Assembly (NCBI GenBank): GCA_043797085.1
Contig: JAZDQA010000008.1
Span: 128,001-192,000 of the forward strand
Origin: Pseudomonadota bacterium
GTDB lineage: Bacteria > Campylobacterota > Campylobacteria > Campylobacterales > Sulfurimonadaceae
Direction of reading: 5' to 3'
DNA: 64,000 nucleotides
Shown here: positions 4,698-45,975 of the stretch, in pieces
Layout: each line of letters starts with the position of its first letter
Numbering within the stretch: position 1 is the first letter of the stretch
Translations under genes and position numbers: made by a program
Notes under the pieces: model-generated
Told to the model about the DNA's origin: nothing
The model's database searches: none
The model's input: only the letters and a program-made list of their open reading frames with translations

Positions 4698-5072
4698 ATG
4701 GCTGTAATGATTACTGATTTATGTATTAACTGTGACGCGTGTATCGACGAGTGTCCCGTAGCGGCAATCGCAAGTGAGGGTGATTCACCGCGTGATGATT
4801 GGGAATATACCTACGTCAAACCGGAAAAATGTATCGAGTGTGTCGGTCATGCTGAAGTTCCTGCGTGTGCAGCCGCCTGTCCTACGGAAGAGTGTATCGT
4901 GTGGGATATGCCGTATACGGCTGAGTTTAATGATTATTATGTGAACAGTTCGGATTATGCGATTGGTTCGAGCAAAAAACGAGGATTGCTTTCTCCGGAA
5001 GTCTCTCCTCAAACGTTCCGTGATGATATTTCGATTGAAATGCGTCAAGCACGTGAAGCGGTAGCCGTCTAA
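4698..5072 (+). CDS. 2[4Fe-4S] ferredoxin (FdxN-like) with C-terminal extension
   Basis: CINCDACIDECP and CIEC-x8-CAAACP. Confidence 0.85.
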   Translation: MAVMITDLCINCDACIDECPVAAIASEGDSPRDDWEYTYVKPEKCIECVGHAEVPACAAACPTEECIVWDMPYTAEFNDYYVNSSDYAIGSSKKRGLLSPEVSPQTFRDDISIEMRQAREAVAV

Positions 5073-5453
5073 ATGTTAATCGCGTTCGCTTCATCGGATG
5101 GAATCTCTGTCAATCAACATTTTGGATGGTCGAAGAGTTTTGAGCTGTATCGTGTCACGCAAGAGACAGCCGAGTTTATCAAAACACTCGACAGCTCCCA
5201 AGACGCGATCGAAGACGAACACGAAAAGCTGGCGTACAAAATCGGGACGGTAAAAGAAGCAGATATCATGTTTTGCTCCCAAATCGGTCCGACGGCGTCG
5301 AAGATGGTGTTGGCTTCCAAAATTTATCCGATGCGTTCGGCAGAAAATGAACTTATTGAGGAAGCAATCAAAAAACTTCAAGAGTTATTATTGGGCAATC
5401 CGCCGCCGTGGTTGTTGCGAATTGTACACACAACAAAAGATAAGGAGATTTAA
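5073..5453 (+). CDS. nifX: NifX, FeMo-co precursor carrier
   Basis: IAFASSDG..VNQHFG, IGPTA, PPPWL C-terminus. Confidence 0.85.
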   Translation: MLIAFASSDGISVNQHFGWSKSFELYRVTQETAEFIKTLDSSQDAIEDEHEKLAYKIGTVKEADIMFCSQIGPTASKMVLASKIYPMRSAENELIEEAIKKLQELLLGNPPPWLLRIVHTTKDKEI

Positions 5454-5455
5454 TT

Positions 5456-5851
5456 ATGTCAGTAATTATCGATGATACCTGTATCACGTGCGATGCGTGT
5501 TTACAACAATGTCCGGTCAATGCAATCTTAGATGATACCACAAGCCCGATGGGGAACAAACGTTATTACGTTGAACCGGAAAAATGTATCGAATGCGTCA
5601 GTGTGTATGATGATCCGCAATGTGCGGCGATTTGTCCGAGTATCGGATGTATTACGTGGGATATGCCTTTTACCAAAGAGTTCGATGCTCATTTTCTTAA
5701 TGAAGAGATCTATAAATTAGGGACAAAAAACGGTGTTCCAAAATCTCCCGCCTTTAGAGAGAAAAAATACCGCAAAGATATTCCTATCGAAATGCGTGGA
5801 GTAGGGCATATCGTCCAAGAAGAACCGGAAAACCTCGAAGAAGTGGGATAA
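5456..5851 (+). CDS. Second 2[4Fe-4S] ferredoxin (FdxN-like) with C-terminal extension
   Basis: CITCDACLQQCP and CIEC-x8-CAAICP. Confidence 0.85.
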   Translation: MSVIIDDTCITCDACLQQCPVNAILDDTTSPMGNKRYYVEPEKCIECVSVYDDPQCAAICPSIGCITWDMPFTKEFDAHFLNEEIYKLGTKNGVPKSPAFREKKYRKDIPIEMRGVGHIVQEEPENLEEVG

Positions 5852-6192
5852 TGAACCCCATCAACAAAGTTGCCGCCAGACTCGACACTTTTGGCAGAGA
5901 TTGTGCGGTGACGGTCGCTTTGAAAATCAGCGATGATTCATGCAAGATGGATGAGGAACAGCGCTCTGTCTTTATGGCTCTTTACGATGCGCTTGAATCT
6001 TTTGAAAGTGAACTTTTTGATGAGAGTGTCAACACGCTAATTCATTCCGCCCGAACTGCTCCCTCCGCAACTCTTTATGCTCAGATCAAAAAAGAGCGTG
6101 AAATGGCAATGGCAATCATCACCCAAGAGAAGATGAAAGCGTTTAAAGCATCGGTTCGAGCCGCATTGCTGATCGCACAGTTAAATCAATAA
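5851..6192 (+). CDS. Hypothetical protein (113 aa), last gene of nifX operon
   Basis: TAATG coupling to ferredoxin gene. Confidence 0.7.
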   Translation: MNPINKVAARLDTFGRDCAVTVALKISDDSCKMDEEQRSVFMALYDALESFESELFDESVNTLIHSARTAPSATLYAQIKKEREMAMAIITQEKMKAFKASVRAALLIAQLNQ

Positions 6193-24880: not shown

Positions 24881-26074
<1,194 letters not shown>

Positions 26075-39299: not shown

Positions 39300-39497
39300 A
39301 TGTCTGAAATGACCGAAGTAGAACACAAAAAAGAGTTGGCAAAGCTCAAACGTTTGGCGATTGAAGTTGCCTCTGAAATTCACGATATTGTTGAAGACAC
39401 GGTTTGGAGTAATCACGTGAAAATGCCTGAACTGGCTGAAAAACTCTACATTGCCGTCGAAAAAGCAAATGCGTATAAAGCAGAGCACTCTCTGTAA
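39300..39497 (+). CDS. CCE_0567/DUF683 (Rop-like) nif-associated metalloprotein
   Basis: LAKLKRLA..ASEIHDIVED..W. Confidence 0.7.
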   Translation: MSEMTEVEHKKELAKLKRLAIEVASEIHDIVEDTVWSNHVKMPELAEKLYIAVEKANAYKAEHSL

Positions 39498-39508
39498 AGG
39501 AGGCTCGT

Positions 39509-39787
39509 ATGCCTACCAAAGAAGAAATCTTAGCCCACGAAATCTGTGAATGCGGCGGCAAGAGTGTTGCCGATGCTATCAAAATATTTCAAGATACCTC
39601 CCTTCCTTATAAAAAAGCCAAAAAACTCGTTACCGAGTGTGACAAGAGCTGCTGCCGTGCTGCACTTCTACGAATATTTGATATGGCGTATACGGGTAAA
39701 TTTGATTACGATGAGATCGATCGACTCATTCAATTACGCAACGATAAACTGGGCGAAATACTCGAGAGGATGAAAAGTGGGCGCTGA
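39509..39787 (+). CDS. Small Cys-rich BFD-like putative [2Fe-2S] protein
   Basis: ICEC...CDKSCC spacing. Confidence 0.5.
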   Translation: MPTKEEILAHEICECGGKSVADAIKIFQDTSLPYKKAKKLVTECDKSCCRAALLRIFDMAYTGKFDYDEIDRLIQLRNDKLGEILERMKSGR

Positions 39788-40238: not shown

Positions 40239-40774
40239 TGATAAGCGCCTTTATCTTCGAAAACCTCTTTGATTTCTAATACAACAGGTGTTGATTTCTC
40301 TTGCTGGGTAAAATGGCTTAATTCGTCAAATTTCTCATCCGATAAACTCATCAGCTGTGCTTCAAAAATACGGAGTTTTTGTTTTAGTTTATCTGAGAGC
40401 TGGACAATCTCTTCATAATAGCGTTGAGAGAATTCGATTTCATGGGAACTTGCACGCGTTTTCCCCCCTAAAAATTCACTCAGAAGATTACGTTTTCTAT
40501 TTCCATAATAGATAGGATAAATTTTCGTGTATTTATCATGTAACTCCATTAAGAGAGTTTCAATATCTTCGAGTGCTAATTGACTTGTTCCTAAGCTAAA
40601 AAGCATTGCTTCATTGTAATACCATACTCCAAATTGTGAATGGGTTGCATCCAGCGTGATTTGTTTCTCATCGACATCAATACCGGAAACCAGCAGTTTG
40701 ATTGCGTTGACCCAGCGTATATGTGCGGTTCTGGCTTGATGCATGTTATGGATAAATTTTTCTTTATTGGTCAT
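40217..40774 (-). CDS. CZB-like domain protein
   Basis: AHIRWV, SQFGVWY, ELHDKY. Confidence 0.6.
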   Translation of the reverse strand: MTNKEKFIHNMHQARTAHIRWVNAIKLLVSGIDVDEKQITLDATHSQFGVWYYNEAMLFSLGTSQLALEDIETLLMELHDKYTKIYPIYYGNRKRNLLSEFLGGKTRASSHEIEFSQRYYEEIVQLSDKLKQKLRIFEAQLMSLSDEKFDELSHFTQQEKSTPVVLEIKEVFEDKGAYHYGARGR

Positions 40775-40975
40775 AGCAGCCCCTTTTTTACGGAAGTTTA
40801 ACCATTTAGGATGATTTATTCGCAGATAGACAGTTTAATTTTTAATCAGTTGATAAATATTGGGTGAGAAATGTCGTAATTTTAACGAAGCTGACCCCTG
40901 CAACTCATATTCCTACAATTTTGTTTCATTGTCGTAACTTTGTAACGGTTGTTTTGCTAAATGTCCAAAAAACCG

Positions 40976-40992
40976 TAGAACACCCTTTGCAT
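40976..40992 (+). promoter_or_regulatory. Candidate nif-type -24/-12-like promoter of nifH (TAGAACACCCTTTGCAT)
   Basis: GAAC-N5-TTGCAT 34 nt upstream of ATG. Confidence 0.7.
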
Positions 40993-41017
40993 CTATCTGG
41001 ATGAAGTTCAAAAATAA

Positions 41018-41941
<924 letters not shown>

Positions 41942-41950
41942 GTAAAACGG

Positions 41951-41966
41951 TTCCTCTTTTGAGGAA
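41951..41966 (+). other. Hairpin after nifH (TTCCTC-TTTT-GAGGAA), possible transcript-stabilising or attenuating stem
   Basis: Perfect 6-bp stem, no U tract. Confidence 0.45.
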
Positions 41967-42043
41967 TCTTCAATGGCTGTCATGTAAATGACCAATAACA
42001 TCTTGTTAATAATGAAAAGAAAACAACAGAAAAAGGAGATTAG

Positions 42044-42403
42044 ATGTTTGTATTAGGTTTTCACTTCCCAGCTTCAATGGGGAATCAAGTTCCAGACGAA
42101 TTAGTTGCAGAAAAAATTGCCGATGTTGATATCAGTGACGTTAAAGAGATCAAACTTTTGATGGGTACTAAAGAGAGAGATAAAGAGTGGTTGAGCTACA
42201 CGAACAAAGATACGTTCTTGTTCCGTGCAATGGTTCATTACTTCAAAGAAGAGAACCCAGATAGTATTCAAAAATACATGATCTACATGAACCGTTACCA
42301 AATGTCTGCTATCTCTAAACGTGTTGATGCAGCAGATGATGAGACAATGAAATTGTGTCATAACTTAGATTCGATGGAACAATTCCGCATCGAAATCGCG
42401 TAA
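42044..42403 (+). CDS. Unknown 119-aa protein between nifH and nifD
   Basis: Strong AAGGAG RBS, codon style like nifHDK, 14 nt from nifD. Confidence 0.85.
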
Positions 42404-42417
42404 GGAAGAGGTGTACT

Positions 42418-43887
42418 ATGGGTCCAGAAACACTAGAAGCTAAACAAAAAGCGGCCATTGAAGAGATCTTAAAAGCGTATCCTGAGAAAGCGGCGAAAAA
42501 CCGTGAAAAACATCTCGGTGTCGGATCTCCAAATGATGAAAATCAAAAAACGTGCGGTGATGTCCGTTCAAACAAAAAAACCGTTCCCGGAGTTATGAGC
42601 CAACGCGGTTGTGCTTATGCAGGTTCTAAAGGGGTTGTATGGGGTCCGATCAAAGATATGATTCATATCTCTCACGGTCCTATCGGGTGTGGTCAATATA
42701 GCCGTGCAGGTCGTCGTAACTATTATATCGGTGTAACCGGTGTTGATACGTTCGTAACGATGAACTTTAGCTCGGATTTCCAAGAGAACAACATCGTTTT
42801 CGGTGGAGACAAAAAATTGGGTAAATGTATCGATGAAATCGAAGAACTTTTCCCATTGAATAACGGTATCTCTGTTCAATCAGAATGTCCAATCGGTTTG
42901 ATCGGGGATGATATCAACGCGGTAGCAAAAATGAAAGCGAAAGAGATCGGTAAAACGATCGTTCCTGTAAACTGTGAAGGTTTCCGTGGGGTTTCTCAAT
43001 CACTTGGTCACCACATCGCAAATGACACGATTCGTGACTATATCTTTGATGGCGATTTGAGTCACATCGATATCAGTGATGTGACACCGACTGAGTATGA
43101 CGTTGCGATCATCGGGGACTACAACATCGGTGGTGACACATGGTCAAGCCGTATCCTTCTCGAAGAGATGGGTCTACGTGTTGTAGCACAATGGTCAGGC
43201 GATGCGACAATGAAAGAGATGGCATTGACACCTAAAGTTAAATTGAACTTGCTTCACTGCTACCGTTCAATGAACTACATCAGCCGTCACATGGAAAAAG
43301 AGTTCGGGATTCCTTGGATCGAATATAACTTCTTTGGACCATCACAAACCATCAAATCACTTCGCAAAATTGCGTCGTTCTTTGACGAGAGCATCCAAGC
43401 TAAATGTGAAGAAGTTATCGCTAAATATCAACCAATGATCGATGCGGTTATTGCAAAATATAAACCTCGTCTCGAAGGTAAAACAGTAATGTTGTTCGTC
43501 GGCGGTCTTCGTCCTCGTCACGTTATCGGTGCTTACGAAGATTTAGGTATGGAAGTAATCGGAACAGGATATGAGTTCGCTCATGATGATGACTACAAAC
43601 GTACTAAAGAAGAGATCTTCCGTTCAACTGTTATCTACGATGACGTTAACGAGTATGAGCTTGAAGCATTTGTAAAAAAACTTCAACCTGACCTAGTAGC
43701 TTCTGGGATCAAAGAGAAGTATGTATTCCAAAAAATGGGTCTTCCGTATCGTCAGATGCACTCATGGGATTACAGCGGACCTTACCACGGGTACGACGGA
43801 TTTGCGATTTTCGCACAAGATATGGATTTAGCAATTAATTCACCTGTATGGGCGCACTCAAAAGCACCATGGGAAAAGGAAGGTTGA
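42418..43887 (+). CDS. nifD: Nitrogenase MoFe protein alpha chain
   Basis: RGCAYAG, HGPIGC, ECPIG, HCYRS (Cys275), MHSWDY (His442). Confidence 0.99.
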
Positions 43888-43891
43888 GACT

Positions 43892-45436
43892 ATGCAAGAA
43901 GTAGAAAAAATTGTAAACGGGAAAGACCTGTTTAAACGCCCTGAGTACAAAGAAGTACTCGCAAACAAAAAACAATTCGAATCGTCTATGCTCGCAATCA
44001 ACCCTGCGAAAGTAGATGAAATCGCTGAGTGGACTAAATCATGGGATTACCGTGAGAAAAACTTGGCCCGTGAAGCGGTTACCGTCAATCCTGCAAAAGC
44101 ATGTCAGCCTCTTGGGGCTGTTATGGTTGCACTCGGGTTTGAGGGTACTATGCCTTACGTTCATGGTTCTCATGGATGTGTTGCGTATTTCCGTTCATAC
44201 TTTACCAAACACTTCAAAGAGCCGACTCCATGTGTTTCTGACTCTATGACTGAAGATGCTGCGGTATTCGGTGGATTGGTGAATATGAAAGAGGGTCTTA
44301 AAAACTGTGCAGCAGTGTATAAACCTAAAATGATCGCGGTTTCTACTACTTGTATGGCAGAAGTTATCGGGGATGATTTACAAGCGTTTATCATTGCGGC
44401 TAAAGAAGAAGATAAAGGTGAGTTTTTAGCAGCTGATTATCCAATTCCTTATGCACATACTCCTTCATTCGTAGGAAGTCATATCACTGGATATGACAAC
44501 ATGATGCACGGTATCATGTCACAGCTTACAGAAGGACAAAAAGGTGAAACAAAACAACGTATCAACATCATCCCTGGTTTTGAAACGTATATCGGAAGCC
44601 TTCGTTCAGTAAAAACTATCGTAGAAGCGTTCGGCACAGACTATATCATGTTGGGTGACCACTCTGATCAATGGGATATGCCTGCCGGTAACTATGAAAT
44701 GTTCCAAGGCGGAACAAAATTGGATGATGCAAAAGATTGTATCAATTCAAGTGCAACTATCAGTTTGCAAAAATATGCAACGGCTAAAACCATGAAAATG
44801 GTCGAAAAACGTTGGAAACATGCAGGTGGATTCTCTAACCCAGTCGGTCTCAAAGGGACAGATGAGTTCGTTATGAAACTTGCAGAATTAACAGGAACCG
44901 AAGTTCCACAAAAACTCAAAGTAGAGCGCGGCCGTTTGGTTGATGCTATGCAAGATAGCTATCCGTACATGCACGGTAAAAAATTCGCTATCTGGGGTGA
45001 TCCTGACTTCCTAATCGGTGCAGTATCATTCCTTCTTGAGATGGGTGCTGAGCCTACTCACGTTCTTTGTCACAATGCACCAAACGGTTGGGAAGCAGAG
45101 ATGAGAGCAATGCTCGATACTTCTCCTGCAAAAGACAGTTTGAATGTATGGGCTGGTAAAGATTTATGGGCAATGCGTTCACTTCTCTTCACTGAGCCTG
45201 TTGATTTCATGATCGGTAACAGCTACGGTAAAGAGTTGATGCGTGACACTGGTACTCCGTTGATCTACATCGGATTCCCAATCTTTGACCGTCACCACCT
45301 ACACCGTTACTCTATCAGCGGGTACGATGGAGCGTTGAACCTTCTTACTTGGATCACGAACAAAGTTCTTGACCAATTGGATGAAGATACCAAAGGTATC
45401 GCAACAACTGACTATTTCTTCGACCTCGTTCGCTAA
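43892..45436 (+). CDS. nifK: Nitrogenase MoFe protein beta chain
   Basis: PAKACQPLG, HGSHGC, TTCMAEVIGDD, FDLVR. Confidence 0.99.
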   Translation: MQEVEKIVNGKDLFKRPEYKEVLANKKQFESSMLAINPAKVDEIAEWTKSWDYREKNLAREAVTVNPAKACQPLGAVMVALGFEGTMPYVHGSHGCVAYFRSYFTKHFKEPTPCVSDSMTEDAAVFGGLVNMKEGLKNCAAVYKPKMIAVSTTCMAEVIGDDLQAFIIAAKEEDKGEFLAADYPIPYAHTPSFVGSHITGYDNMMHGIMSQLTEGQKGETKQRINIIPGFETYIGSLRSVKTIVEAFGTDYIMLGDHSDQWDMPAGNYEMFQGGTKLDDAKDCINSSATISLQKYATAKTMKMVEKRWKHAGGFSNPVGLKGTDEFVMKLAELTGTEVPQKLKVERGRLVDAMQDSYPYMHGKKFAIWGDPDFLIGAVSFLLEMGAEPTHVLCHNAPNGWEAEMRAMLDTSPAKDSLNVWAGKDLWAMRSLLFTEPVDFMIGNSYGKELMRDTGTPLIYIGFPIFDRHHLHRYSISGYDGALNLLTWITNKVLDQLDEDTKGIATTDYFFDLVR

Positions 45437-45483
45437 AAAATCCCCTTCTCCGGGGGAACTAATTTCATTGATTCTCGTCACTT

Positions 45484-45504
45484 TCTCCCTTCGGGGAGAT
45501 TTTT
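45484..45504 (+). terminator. Rho-independent terminator after nifK
   Basis: TCTCCC-TTCG-GGGAGA-TTTTT. Confidence 0.85.
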
Positions 45505-45550
45505 GGTTGAATATTCTTAGGAATGTTGAGTCAAACAAAGAGGAAAATTT

Positions 45551-45739
45551 ATGGCAGACGTTCACGAAAAAATCAAAGAGCAGCTTATGGTTGAAATTTA
45601 TGCGAGTATCGATCGTATCTACGACTCAATCGAGCAGCATTTTGAGTTGGATGAAACACGACGTGATAATGTTATCAAACATCTCAACACGCTCAAAGAC
45701 GAACTGTATTTTGTGGTTCAGACGACACCATTGTCTTAA
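45551..45739 (+). CDS. Hypothetical protein (62 aa)
   Basis: AGAGG RBS; helical charged sequence. Confidence 0.6.
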   Translation: MADVHEKIKEQLMVEIYASIDRIYDSIEQHFELDETRRDNVIKHLNTLKDELYFVVQTTPLS

Positions 45740-45975
45740 AGTGATTCTTCGTCTTCAAATTCTTGAAATGCTTCGCTAAGGTCAGAGGGCTTGACAATCT
45801 CATTCTCCATCTTCTCAGCATATTCAGCTTCTTCAACTTTTGCATGCGCTTCTTCGACATAATCAATAAATGTTTCGATATCTTGCTGGGGTTGATAAAA
45901 TTGTGCATACCCCAACGCAATATCTATAAATTCTGTTCCACACCCATAATTCACTAATTGCTGTTTTAAATCCAT
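45736..45975 (-). CDS. Acidic hypothetical protein (79 aa)
   Basis: GAGG RBS; convergent stop overlap. Confidence 0.55.
   Translation of the reverse strand: MDLKQQLVNYGCGTEFIDIALGYAQFYQPQQDIETFIDYVEEAHAKVEEAEYAEKMENEIVKPSDLSEAFQEFEDEESL

Follow-up and report, generated by a model that had tools for sequence, protein, structure and literature searches.

Few enzymes have been studied as much as nitrogenase, whose reductase component is presented as a simple homodimer of NifH. The slot between nifH and nifD can hold nifI1 and nifI2, two genes for P-II proteins of about 105-125 amino acids (aa) that are co-expressed with the structural genes and whose products bind NifDK. VnfG and AnfG are small (about 115-120 aa), cofactor-less extra proteins whose gene lies within the structural operon, flanked by the D and K genes, and they form a stoichiometric delta subunit. 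The maturase NifM acts on NifH. Shethna protein II (FeSII) and CowN are both small and protect activity by binding to components of nitrogenase (PMC13474568). In this work, we analyzed a gene, designated X, that occupies the slot between nifH and nifD in a 64,000-nucleotide (nt) stretch of DNA from a bacterium of the Sulfurimonadaceae, order Campylobacterales (GenBank assembly GCA_043797085.1, contig JAZDQA010000008.1, positions 128,001 to 192,000; this whole stretch is called the window). An earlier note on this DNA, made from its letters and open reading frames, had singled out X as a protein of no recognized family and as a possible stoichiometric partner of nitrogenase.

X resembles NifI1/NifI2 in its slot, its size and its probable co-expression with the structural genes, but it lacks a P-II domain and a GDGKIF-type motif, its modeled alpha/beta fold is different, it is one gene and not two, and its predicted partner is NifH, bound at an end that the topology of the NifH fold would place far from the cluster. 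With VnfG/AnfG it shares its small size, the absence of a cofactor and a gene inside the structural operon; however, X lies between the H and D genes, belongs to a molybdenum (Mo) nitrogenase and has the Fe protein, not the D subunit, as its predicted partner. The likeness to NifM lies in the target, since the predicted footprint of X on NifH adjoins Pro256/Pro258, and in the lack of a true nifM in the lineage of X. In contrast to NifM, X has no peptidyl-prolyl cis-trans isomerase (PPIase) domain, counts 119 aa against the 256 positions of the nifM model, is encoded in the structural operon and is predicted to be stable on folded NifH. FeSII has a [2Fe-2S] cluster, whereas the one Cys of X is not invariant. 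CowN binds NifDK. X matched no family, of either kind or another, at an E value below 0.08 in the Pfam and NCBIfam copies searched. X does not show the defining features of NifI1I2, VnfG/AnfG and NifM, the systems nearest to it in concept.

The nitrogen fixation cluster of Campylobacterota has been described as nifHDK, or as NifHDKENB together with accessory genes (PMC12029903, PMC11474244, PMC4674564), and a review from 2026 on nitrogenase-like systems has no occurrence of 'Campylobacter' or 'Epsilonproteobacteria' in its searchable text (PMC13474568). The passages of running text searched in the literature make no mention of a gene located between nifH and nifD in these organisms; X may be drawn unlabeled in Fig. 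5B of PMC11474244 and Fig. 3B of PMC12029903. Within what was searchable, the X family, its fold and its predicted site on NifH are without precedent.

Results

X is a conserved gene under purifying selection that is strictly tied to the Mo-nitrogenase genes nifHDK in one bacterial order. It occupies positions 42044..42403 of the + strand, starts with ATG and encodes 119 aa. A word-indexed search returned 55 homologues of 80-120 aa with 55-94% identity, and a scan of one genome per species confirmed 110 X loci, of which 80 were retained. The ratio of nonsynonymous to synonymous substitution rates (dN/dS) of X was 0.10 over 142 Sulfuricurvum-type orthologue pairs, compared to 0.047 for nifH (66 pairs) and 0.040 for nifD (81 pairs). 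The 119-aa open reading frame (ORF) read by the earlier note is thus borne out by homologues, loci and dN/dS. Across 32 members, with identity down to 34%, residues M1, F2, G5, F8, A10, G13, N83, Y85 and Q86 were invariant, and the start codon is settled since Met1 and the N-terminal motif are among them. Cys105, the single Cys of X, was kept in 28 of the 32 members and replaced in the other 4.

We then compared X with the structural genes of the window, which were identified by scores above NCBIfam equivalog cut-offs. On the + strand, nifH (Fe protein, 304 aa) is found at 41027..41941 (TIGR01287, 418.3 bits versus a cut-off of 394.35), nifD (MoFe protein alpha chain, 489 aa) at 42418..43887 (TIGR01282, 832.6 bits versus 653.55) and nifK (MoFe protein beta chain, 514 aa) at 43892..45436 (TIGR01286, 796.8 bits versus 427.3); the solved structures nearest to NifH, NifD and NifK are Mo-nitrogenase Fe-protein and MoFe-protein chains. 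By tblastn, nifH lay directly upstream and nifD directly downstream of X, on the same strand, in 89 of 92 loci, and the remaining three (L050, L051 and L092) were truncated by contig ends. Relatives were found only in Campylobacterales, and their gene order was always nifH-X-nifD-nifK; synteny across Campylobacterota was one of the checks that the earlier note had named.

The presence of X was also compared with that of nifD in an order-level draw of 301 Campylobacterales genomes, in which nifD was counted above its curated cut-off. Both genes were detected in 64 genomes each, and 63 genomes had the two together. In the nifD-positive genome without an X match (G046), 181 nt separate nifD from the end of its 4795-base contig, and the frame that is open at this contig end encodes the last 22 residues of an X protein. 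X was thus not absent from related diazotrophs and accompanied nifD in 64/64 nifD-positive genomes (G046 being the contig-cut one). In the X-positive genome without a full nifD (G133), nifH, nifD and nifK are each present in out-of-frame pieces. No X was found in the other 236 of the 301 genomes, which are without nifD above the cut-off. The G133 locus (L094, G133:C1:1433000-1441000) is a decaying nif operon with an X frame that is still open, at 44% identity.

Two genomes of one genus (G039 and G209) encode a 544-aa NifD-like protein that scores just below the nifD cut-off, and both are without X. In G039, the slot between nifH and nifD contains two P-II genes of 123 and 125 aa (PF00543, E values of 2e-17 and 3.9e-22), which agrees with the statement of the earlier note that this slot can hold nifI1/nifI2, here within the same order. 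The locus in question (L095, G039:C14:1-12000) represents a second nitrogenase type in the order, with a 274-aa NifH that lacks the insertion described below and a 544-aa NifD at 39% identity.

Record titles of X relatives named Sulfuricurvum, Sulfurimonas, Sulfurovum, Sulfurospirillum and unclassified Campylobacterales, and the sole label from outside the order belonged to a contig of a metagenome-assembled genome named Marichromatium. A phylum-level draw held only genomes of the same order and therefore sets no wider taxonomic limit; three extra matches in this draw (E values of 3e-4 to 9e-4, inside frames of 404-848 aa) were at chance level. An exhaustive profile search of 1.84 billion representatives returned 22 proteins at an E value of at most 0.001, of which 12 were at 1e-10 or below. 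Without a length filter, this search returned no fused or longer forms of X, the confident matches being about 120 aa or fragments. Long matches of 1040 and 1911 aa (E values of 3e-4 to 1e-3), which consisted of repeated short stretches, were taken as chance.

The translation signals of X were investigated in the window. An AAGGAG ribosome-binding site is located at 42033-42038 (+), 5 nt upstream of the X ATG, and the X stop codon (42401-42403) is separated by a gap of 14 nt from the nifD ATG at 42418. Codon use was scored as a log-odds of nifHDK codon use against that of 60 other window ORFs, X being in neither training set. X scored +0.176 per codon and ranked 4 of 64 ORFs, right behind nifH, nifD and nifK, whereas the other 60 ORFs had a mean of -0.267 (standard deviation, 0.081), the next best after X reaching -0.049. 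The strong ribosome-binding site, the 14-nt gap and the nifHDK-like codons noted earlier were all confirmed, and because X combines these three properties its level is probably comparable to that of the structural genes. RNA-labeled assembled contigs covered X in three runs from three studies, at an identity of at least 88%. Two of them bridge the X/nifD junction (X6 record 19, 42353-42518, with 2 differences; X12 record 3, 42090-42524), and X7 record 25 (42025-42190) spans the ribosome-binding site and the 5' end of X.

X was found to have no known family or fold among the Pfam, NCBIfam and PDB entries searched. The best Pfam and NCBIfam matches had E values of 0.08-0.16, which is at chance level. 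The P-II profile PF00543 gave no match with X at an E value of 1 or below, and the GDGKIF-type motif was absent in all 25 and in all 32 aligned members. As a positive control, the two slot genes of L095 matched PF00543. Moreover, the slot holds a single gene in 89 of 92 loci, not a tandem paralogous pair. The view of the earlier note that X is not a P-II protein is consistent with these results. The VnfG/AnfG profile PF03139 gave no match in Pfam at an E value of 1 or below, and the D gene of the window is a nifD equivalog, its 832.6 bits comparing with 290 and 254 bits for the vnfD and anfD models, both below their cut-offs. X matched neither the NifM model (TIGR02933) nor the PpiC PPIase domain in Pfam or NCBIfam.

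Likewise, the NifW, NifZ and NifT profiles did not match X, and X does not replace these proteins because the contig carries genes for all three at other places (NifW, PF03206, at C8:86267; NifZ, PF04319, at C8:86715; NifT, PF06988, at C8:108880). The four cluster cysteines typical of FeSII are not present in X, which has C105 only. With respect to CowN, X matched no family of any kind at an E value below 0.08, the presence of a CowN model in the copies searched being unconfirmed. Among the 55 homologue rows, 9 carried the label 'phosphopentomutase', which had no Pfam or NCBIfam support and would imply about 390 aa, compared to the 115-120 aa of the members; this label looks like a mis-annotation propagated from one source. 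The otherwise-named homologues were called 'hypothetical protein'.

The AlphaFold2 model of X is alpha/beta, with a mean predicted local distance difference test (pLDDT) score of 84.3 and a predicted template modeling score of 0.81. It contains helices at residues 18-26, 58-70, 84-94 and 99-110 and strands at 36-41, 46-52 and 113-118, in addition to short N-terminal strands. A profile search of the PDB with X gave a best E value of 1.4, a Foldseek search of the PDB with the model gave nothing at 0.001 or below, and the ESM Atlas, which has no structure of X, yielded nothing but unnamed clusters, most of them eukaryotic. With VIA-align, run against 48,161 chains, the best match was the N-terminal domain of Campylobacter jejuni DapD (PDB 2rij) at a Z score of 5.9, followed by a row at 3.8; best matches of models without a clear relative typically reach 7-8 with this tool, so that 5.9 is lower. 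Over 106 aligned residues, X and 2rij had a root mean square deviation of 4.4 A and 8% identity (Foldseek E value, 0.76), and the model therefore indicates no established similarity between X and DapD. Profile and fold searches, which the earlier note had named among the ways to check X, thus found no match to any characterized family.

The NifH of the window has a lineage-specific insertion of 9 residues (residues about 82-95, encoded at 41270..41311, +), located between the equivalents of Tyr80 and Gly81 of solved NifH. An insertion of 9-12 residues (e.g., PGAGIFAPDAPGGW) was present in all 27 X-linked NifH sequences compared, and it was absent from three solved NifH chains that were aligned and from the NifH of L095. 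NifH was chosen for complex prediction on account of this insertion and was the sole partner tried. Two NifH (24-sequence alignment), one [4Fe-4S] cluster and X (32-sequence alignment) were modeled together. X was placed on NifH with an interaction prediction score from aligned errors (ipSAE) of 0.84 in all three runs, compared to 0.00 for the best of 3 controls. The partner pLDDT was 90, and the runs gave 47-53 contacts, of which at least 93% were shared between runs. Since X has no PDB relative by sequence or fold, the prediction is not copied from a solved complex.

On the X side, the predicted interface comprises residues 1-2, 5, 7, 9-10, 13-15, 78, 80-83, 85, 89, 109, 111 and 113, which correspond to the invariant and near-invariant columns of the family, namely, the N-terminal motif and Y..Y.NRYQ. 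On the NifH side, the footprint lies on one monomer and comprises residues 202, 204, 207-210, 213, 216-217, 220-228, 251, 254-255, 258, 262 and 265-270. The lowest-error pairs, NifH 225-228 with X 80-82, form a predicted strand-to-strand contact. Both predicted faces are hydrophobic or aromatic, with F2, H7, Y78, Y81 and Y85 on the X side, and NifH M204 and Y209 stand where the solved Azotobacter vinelandii NifH has Asn and Asp. From the general topology of the NifH fold, not from coordinates, we take the footprint to lie at the cluster-distal end of NifH, at the edge of its sheet.

According to an alignment with solved NifH, subtracting 16 from the window NifH numbering gives A. vinelandii numbering in this region, and the predicted footprint then covers roughly residues 186-254. 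Pro212 hydrogen-bonds the adenine N6 of the bound nucleotide, and the Pro256/Pro258 segment of NifH is the assigned target of NifM (PMC12691677). The predicted footprint includes Pro228 (= Pro212) and ends at V270, two residues before P272/P274 (= Pro256/Pro258). It excludes Arg100, Glu112, Arg140 and Lys143, which are implicated in NifDK docking, as well as the cluster ligands Cys97 and Cys132 (PMC9571451). X is thus predicted to bind NifH through its invariant motifs, beside the adenine pocket and the NifM-target segment and clear of the NifDK-docking residues, and the modeled footprint does not coincide with a known regulator site. The general idea of the earlier note, a nitrogenase partner produced along with NifHDK, gained support from linkage, codon bias and the contrast between 0.84 and 0.00, and the partner that the modeling indicates is NifH.

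Discussion

We propose that X acts as an accessory protein to the Fe protein of nitrogenase and is specific to Campylobacterales. X would be translated off the nifH-X-nifD-nifK message at a level near that of the structural genes. In the model, one X would bind each NifH monomer, and strand 80-83 of X would pair with NifH I224-P228 (IHFVP), which is presumably the edge strand of the NifH sheet. The X motifs MF.LGFHFPA..GN and Y..Y.NRYQ would pack on NifH helices 207-217 and 251-266. The contact may be permanent and subunit-like (NifH2X2), since both faces are hydrophobic or aromatic, the gene lies within the structural operon and the prediction needs no ligand. X may stabilize or complete the Fe-protein fold where NifM is absent, and it may also tune nucleotide exchange. 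No true nifM was found in this genome, the best match reaching 82 bits against a cut-off of 168.2. We give about an even chance to the reading, suggested by the model, that X is a permanent accessory subunit of the Fe protein that stabilizes or completes NifH and perhaps influences nucleotide exchange. Tentatively, and with some doubt, we extend it to an Fe protein that is a NifH2X2 heterotetramer, in which X, as a third kind of nitrogenase polypeptide not seen before, would lie over the base pocket at the presumed cluster-distal end of NifH, be needed for stability and set the rate of exchange of adenosine di- and triphosphate (ADP/ATP); this could be an adaptation for microaerophiles that fix N2 while respiring O2.

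Several observations weigh against a permanent Fe-protein subunit. In distant families, X is 35-40% identical while NifH is 78% identical, and such a roughly 3-fold-faster divergence is uncommon in a core subunit. Relative to nifH, X expression could be reduced by the hairpins that lie between the two genes (see below). The RNA-labeled contigs place the sequence in RNA libraries, from which transcription, strand and level do not follow. In the calibration of the ipSAE mark, 116 of 157 solved complexes and 2 of 215 mismatched pairs attained it; these counts are only approximate here, because custom unpaired alignments were used with a ligand included, and the prediction is a single one. X could, in addition, bind both NifH and NifDK. 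The NifH insertion, considered as a docking site for X, co-occurs with X, yet it lies outside the predicted interface and was rejected.

Two further tests of the interface belong with these points. Eight interface positions (A202, M204, Y209, D210, E258, K262, D267 and K269) are at least 90% conserved in X-linked NifH and different in the NifH of G039. Such substitutions were not enriched at the interface in this comparison with a single X-less outgroup (8 of 29 positions, compared to 50 of 244; Fisher P = 0.35). Mutual information between X and NifH columns, calculated over 83 distinct pairs, was dominated by phylogeny, with a split of Sulfuricurvum versus the rest, and only 4 of 25 listed contact pairs were variable on both sides. 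The pair of NifH 223 and X 82 ranked 20 of 7360, and many non-contact NifH columns matched it. The substitution and covariation tests neither strengthen nor weaken the X-NifH prediction.

X might instead be a conditional regulator or protector that acts at the adenine pocket of NifH under an energy, ammonium or O2 signal and either prevents the exchange of ADP and ATP or traps NifH in a state that is inactive and protected. Its outcome would be like that of NifI1I2, DraT/DraG or Shethna protein II, with a different site and fold. The predicted footprint would suit such a role, as it holds the adenine N6 contact Pro228 and flanks Asn201, Arg229 and Gln252, which we take to line the base pocket. 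A P-II switch-off pair occupies the same operon slot in G039, Cys105 is kept in 28 of 32 members and these organisms fix N2 during O2 respiration (PMC12029903, PMC11474244). DraT was not found in this genome, and nothing matched in control genomes either, so that this result is uninformative. However, X has no recognizable sensor (no cofactor motif, one non-invariant Cys and no match to a ligand-binding family), its hydrophobic and aromatic interface fits a permanent contact better, and the confident complex was predicted without a nucleotide ligand or modification. We consider a conditional regulator unlikely.

Distinctly less probable, in our view, is a transient maturation factor that replaces NifM and holds the C-terminal part of NifH during folding, dimerization or cluster insertion. 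The end of the predicted footprint at V270, two residues from P272/P274, and the lack of a true nifM in the genome point in this direction, and some NifH seem to need extra native-host proteins to fold (PMC12691677). Against this, maturases such as NifM, NifW and NifZ have their genes apart from the structural operon, the same being true of NifW, NifZ and NifT here, and X has no PPIase domain. Moreover, a codon bias of structural-gene type and a place inside nifHDK point to an abundant protein, and the complex was predicted with folded, dimeric NifH.

A slighter chance still is left for X binding mainly to NifDK, like VnfG/AnfG, CowN or NifI1I2, with the NifH prediction being a false positive. 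To our knowledge, and in part according to PMC13474568, most known small nitrogenase partners bind component 1, and the 14 nt from X to nifD suggest translational coupling. In other genera, however, X and nifD are about 15 to 330 nt apart, so that tight coupling is not conserved. The score of the NifH complex relative to its controls, the invariant X residues at its interface and the scarcity of mismatched pairs that reached the mark in the calibration also argue against a false positive. That X is a passenger unconnected with nitrogen fixation, or is no real gene, is very improbable, its lack of a known domain standing against a fixed position in 89/92 loci, its occurrence with nifD in 64/64 genomes and in none of the 236 others, a dN/dS of 0.10 and nifHDK-like codon use.

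As an accessory subunit of the Fe protein, or as a chaperone, X would define a novel mode of NifH handling, through a site used by no known partner. It would then bear on how NifM-independent NifH mature (PMC12691677) and would be a needed part for expressing these nitrogenases in other hosts. The extra gene is conserved inside nifHDK across an order of environmentally important diazotrophs, comprising Sulfurimonas, Sulfurovum, Sulfuricurvum, Sulfurospirillum and Arcobacter-type genera. Diazotrophic isolates are available (PMC11474244, PMC12029903), which opens the question to direct testing.

Other features of the locus

Just 3' of the nifH stop codon lies a hairpin of 8 pairs (one of them G-U) with a TTTT loop, GGTTCCTC-TTTT-GAGGAATC (41949..41968, +), in agreement with the hairpin that the earlier note had placed after nifH. 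A second, small hairpin, GTCAT-GTAA-ATGAC, is located at 41979..41992 (+); its stem is kept in relatives while its loop varies. No T-run was found on the + strand after either hairpin, and the hairpin at 41949-41968 is for this reason not a canonical terminator. Its motif was retained in 15 of 18 Sulfuricurvum-type spacers (that of the window and those of 17 relatives). The folding of the 111-nt nifH-X spacer was unremarkable compared to shuffled sequences (z, -1.2; 22 of 200 shuffles folded equally well).

The second hairpin is followed by an A-rich leader, AACATCTT...AAAAAGGAGATTAG (41997..42043, +), which includes the AAGGAG and is almost invariant among Sulfuricurvum-type loci. In 5 of the 18 spacers compared (L017, L037, L039, L046 and L049), the nifH-X spacer is enlarged by 60-110 nt. 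The inserts are GC-rich, hairpin-forming and repeat-like, have common pieces such as GGGCCTAC.GCCGA.GT and leave the leader at the X ribosome-binding site intact.

At the other end of the operon, a terminator-like hairpin followed by TTTTT is located 46 nt 3' of nifK (45482..45499, +) and is likely to mark the end of the nifH-X-nifD-nifK unit. Upstream, TAGAACACCCTTTGCA at 40976-40991 (+), 36 nt 5' of nifH, resembles a sigma-54 -24/-12 element with 2 mismatches and without the GG. This candidate was discounted, since the pattern had 25 matches in the window, compared to 27.5 expected by chance. An Rfam search of 40700-45800 at an E value of 1 or below returned no RNA family.

Past the nifK terminator, a 62-aa ORF (45551-45739, +) is conserved in position in 38 of 92 loci, with 44-98% identity. 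It has the fifth-highest nifHDK-like codon score of the 64 ORFs and no family match. Upstream of nifH, the region 39300-39787 (+) encodes a 65-aa Rop-like protein (PF05082; E value, 6e-9) and a 92-aa Cys-containing protein without a family, which are conserved in 45/92 and 49/92 loci, respectively. These two ORFs sit between a FeoA-like gene and a GNAT acetyltransferase gene, downstream of nifB-nifV. Further nif-related genes are present in the window far from nifHDK, at 4698-6192, where nifX lies between two YfhL-type ferredoxin genes, and at 24881-26065, where an epsilon-type nifS lies beside genes for cyclic di-GMP signaling, and nifE is located on another contig (G000:C3).

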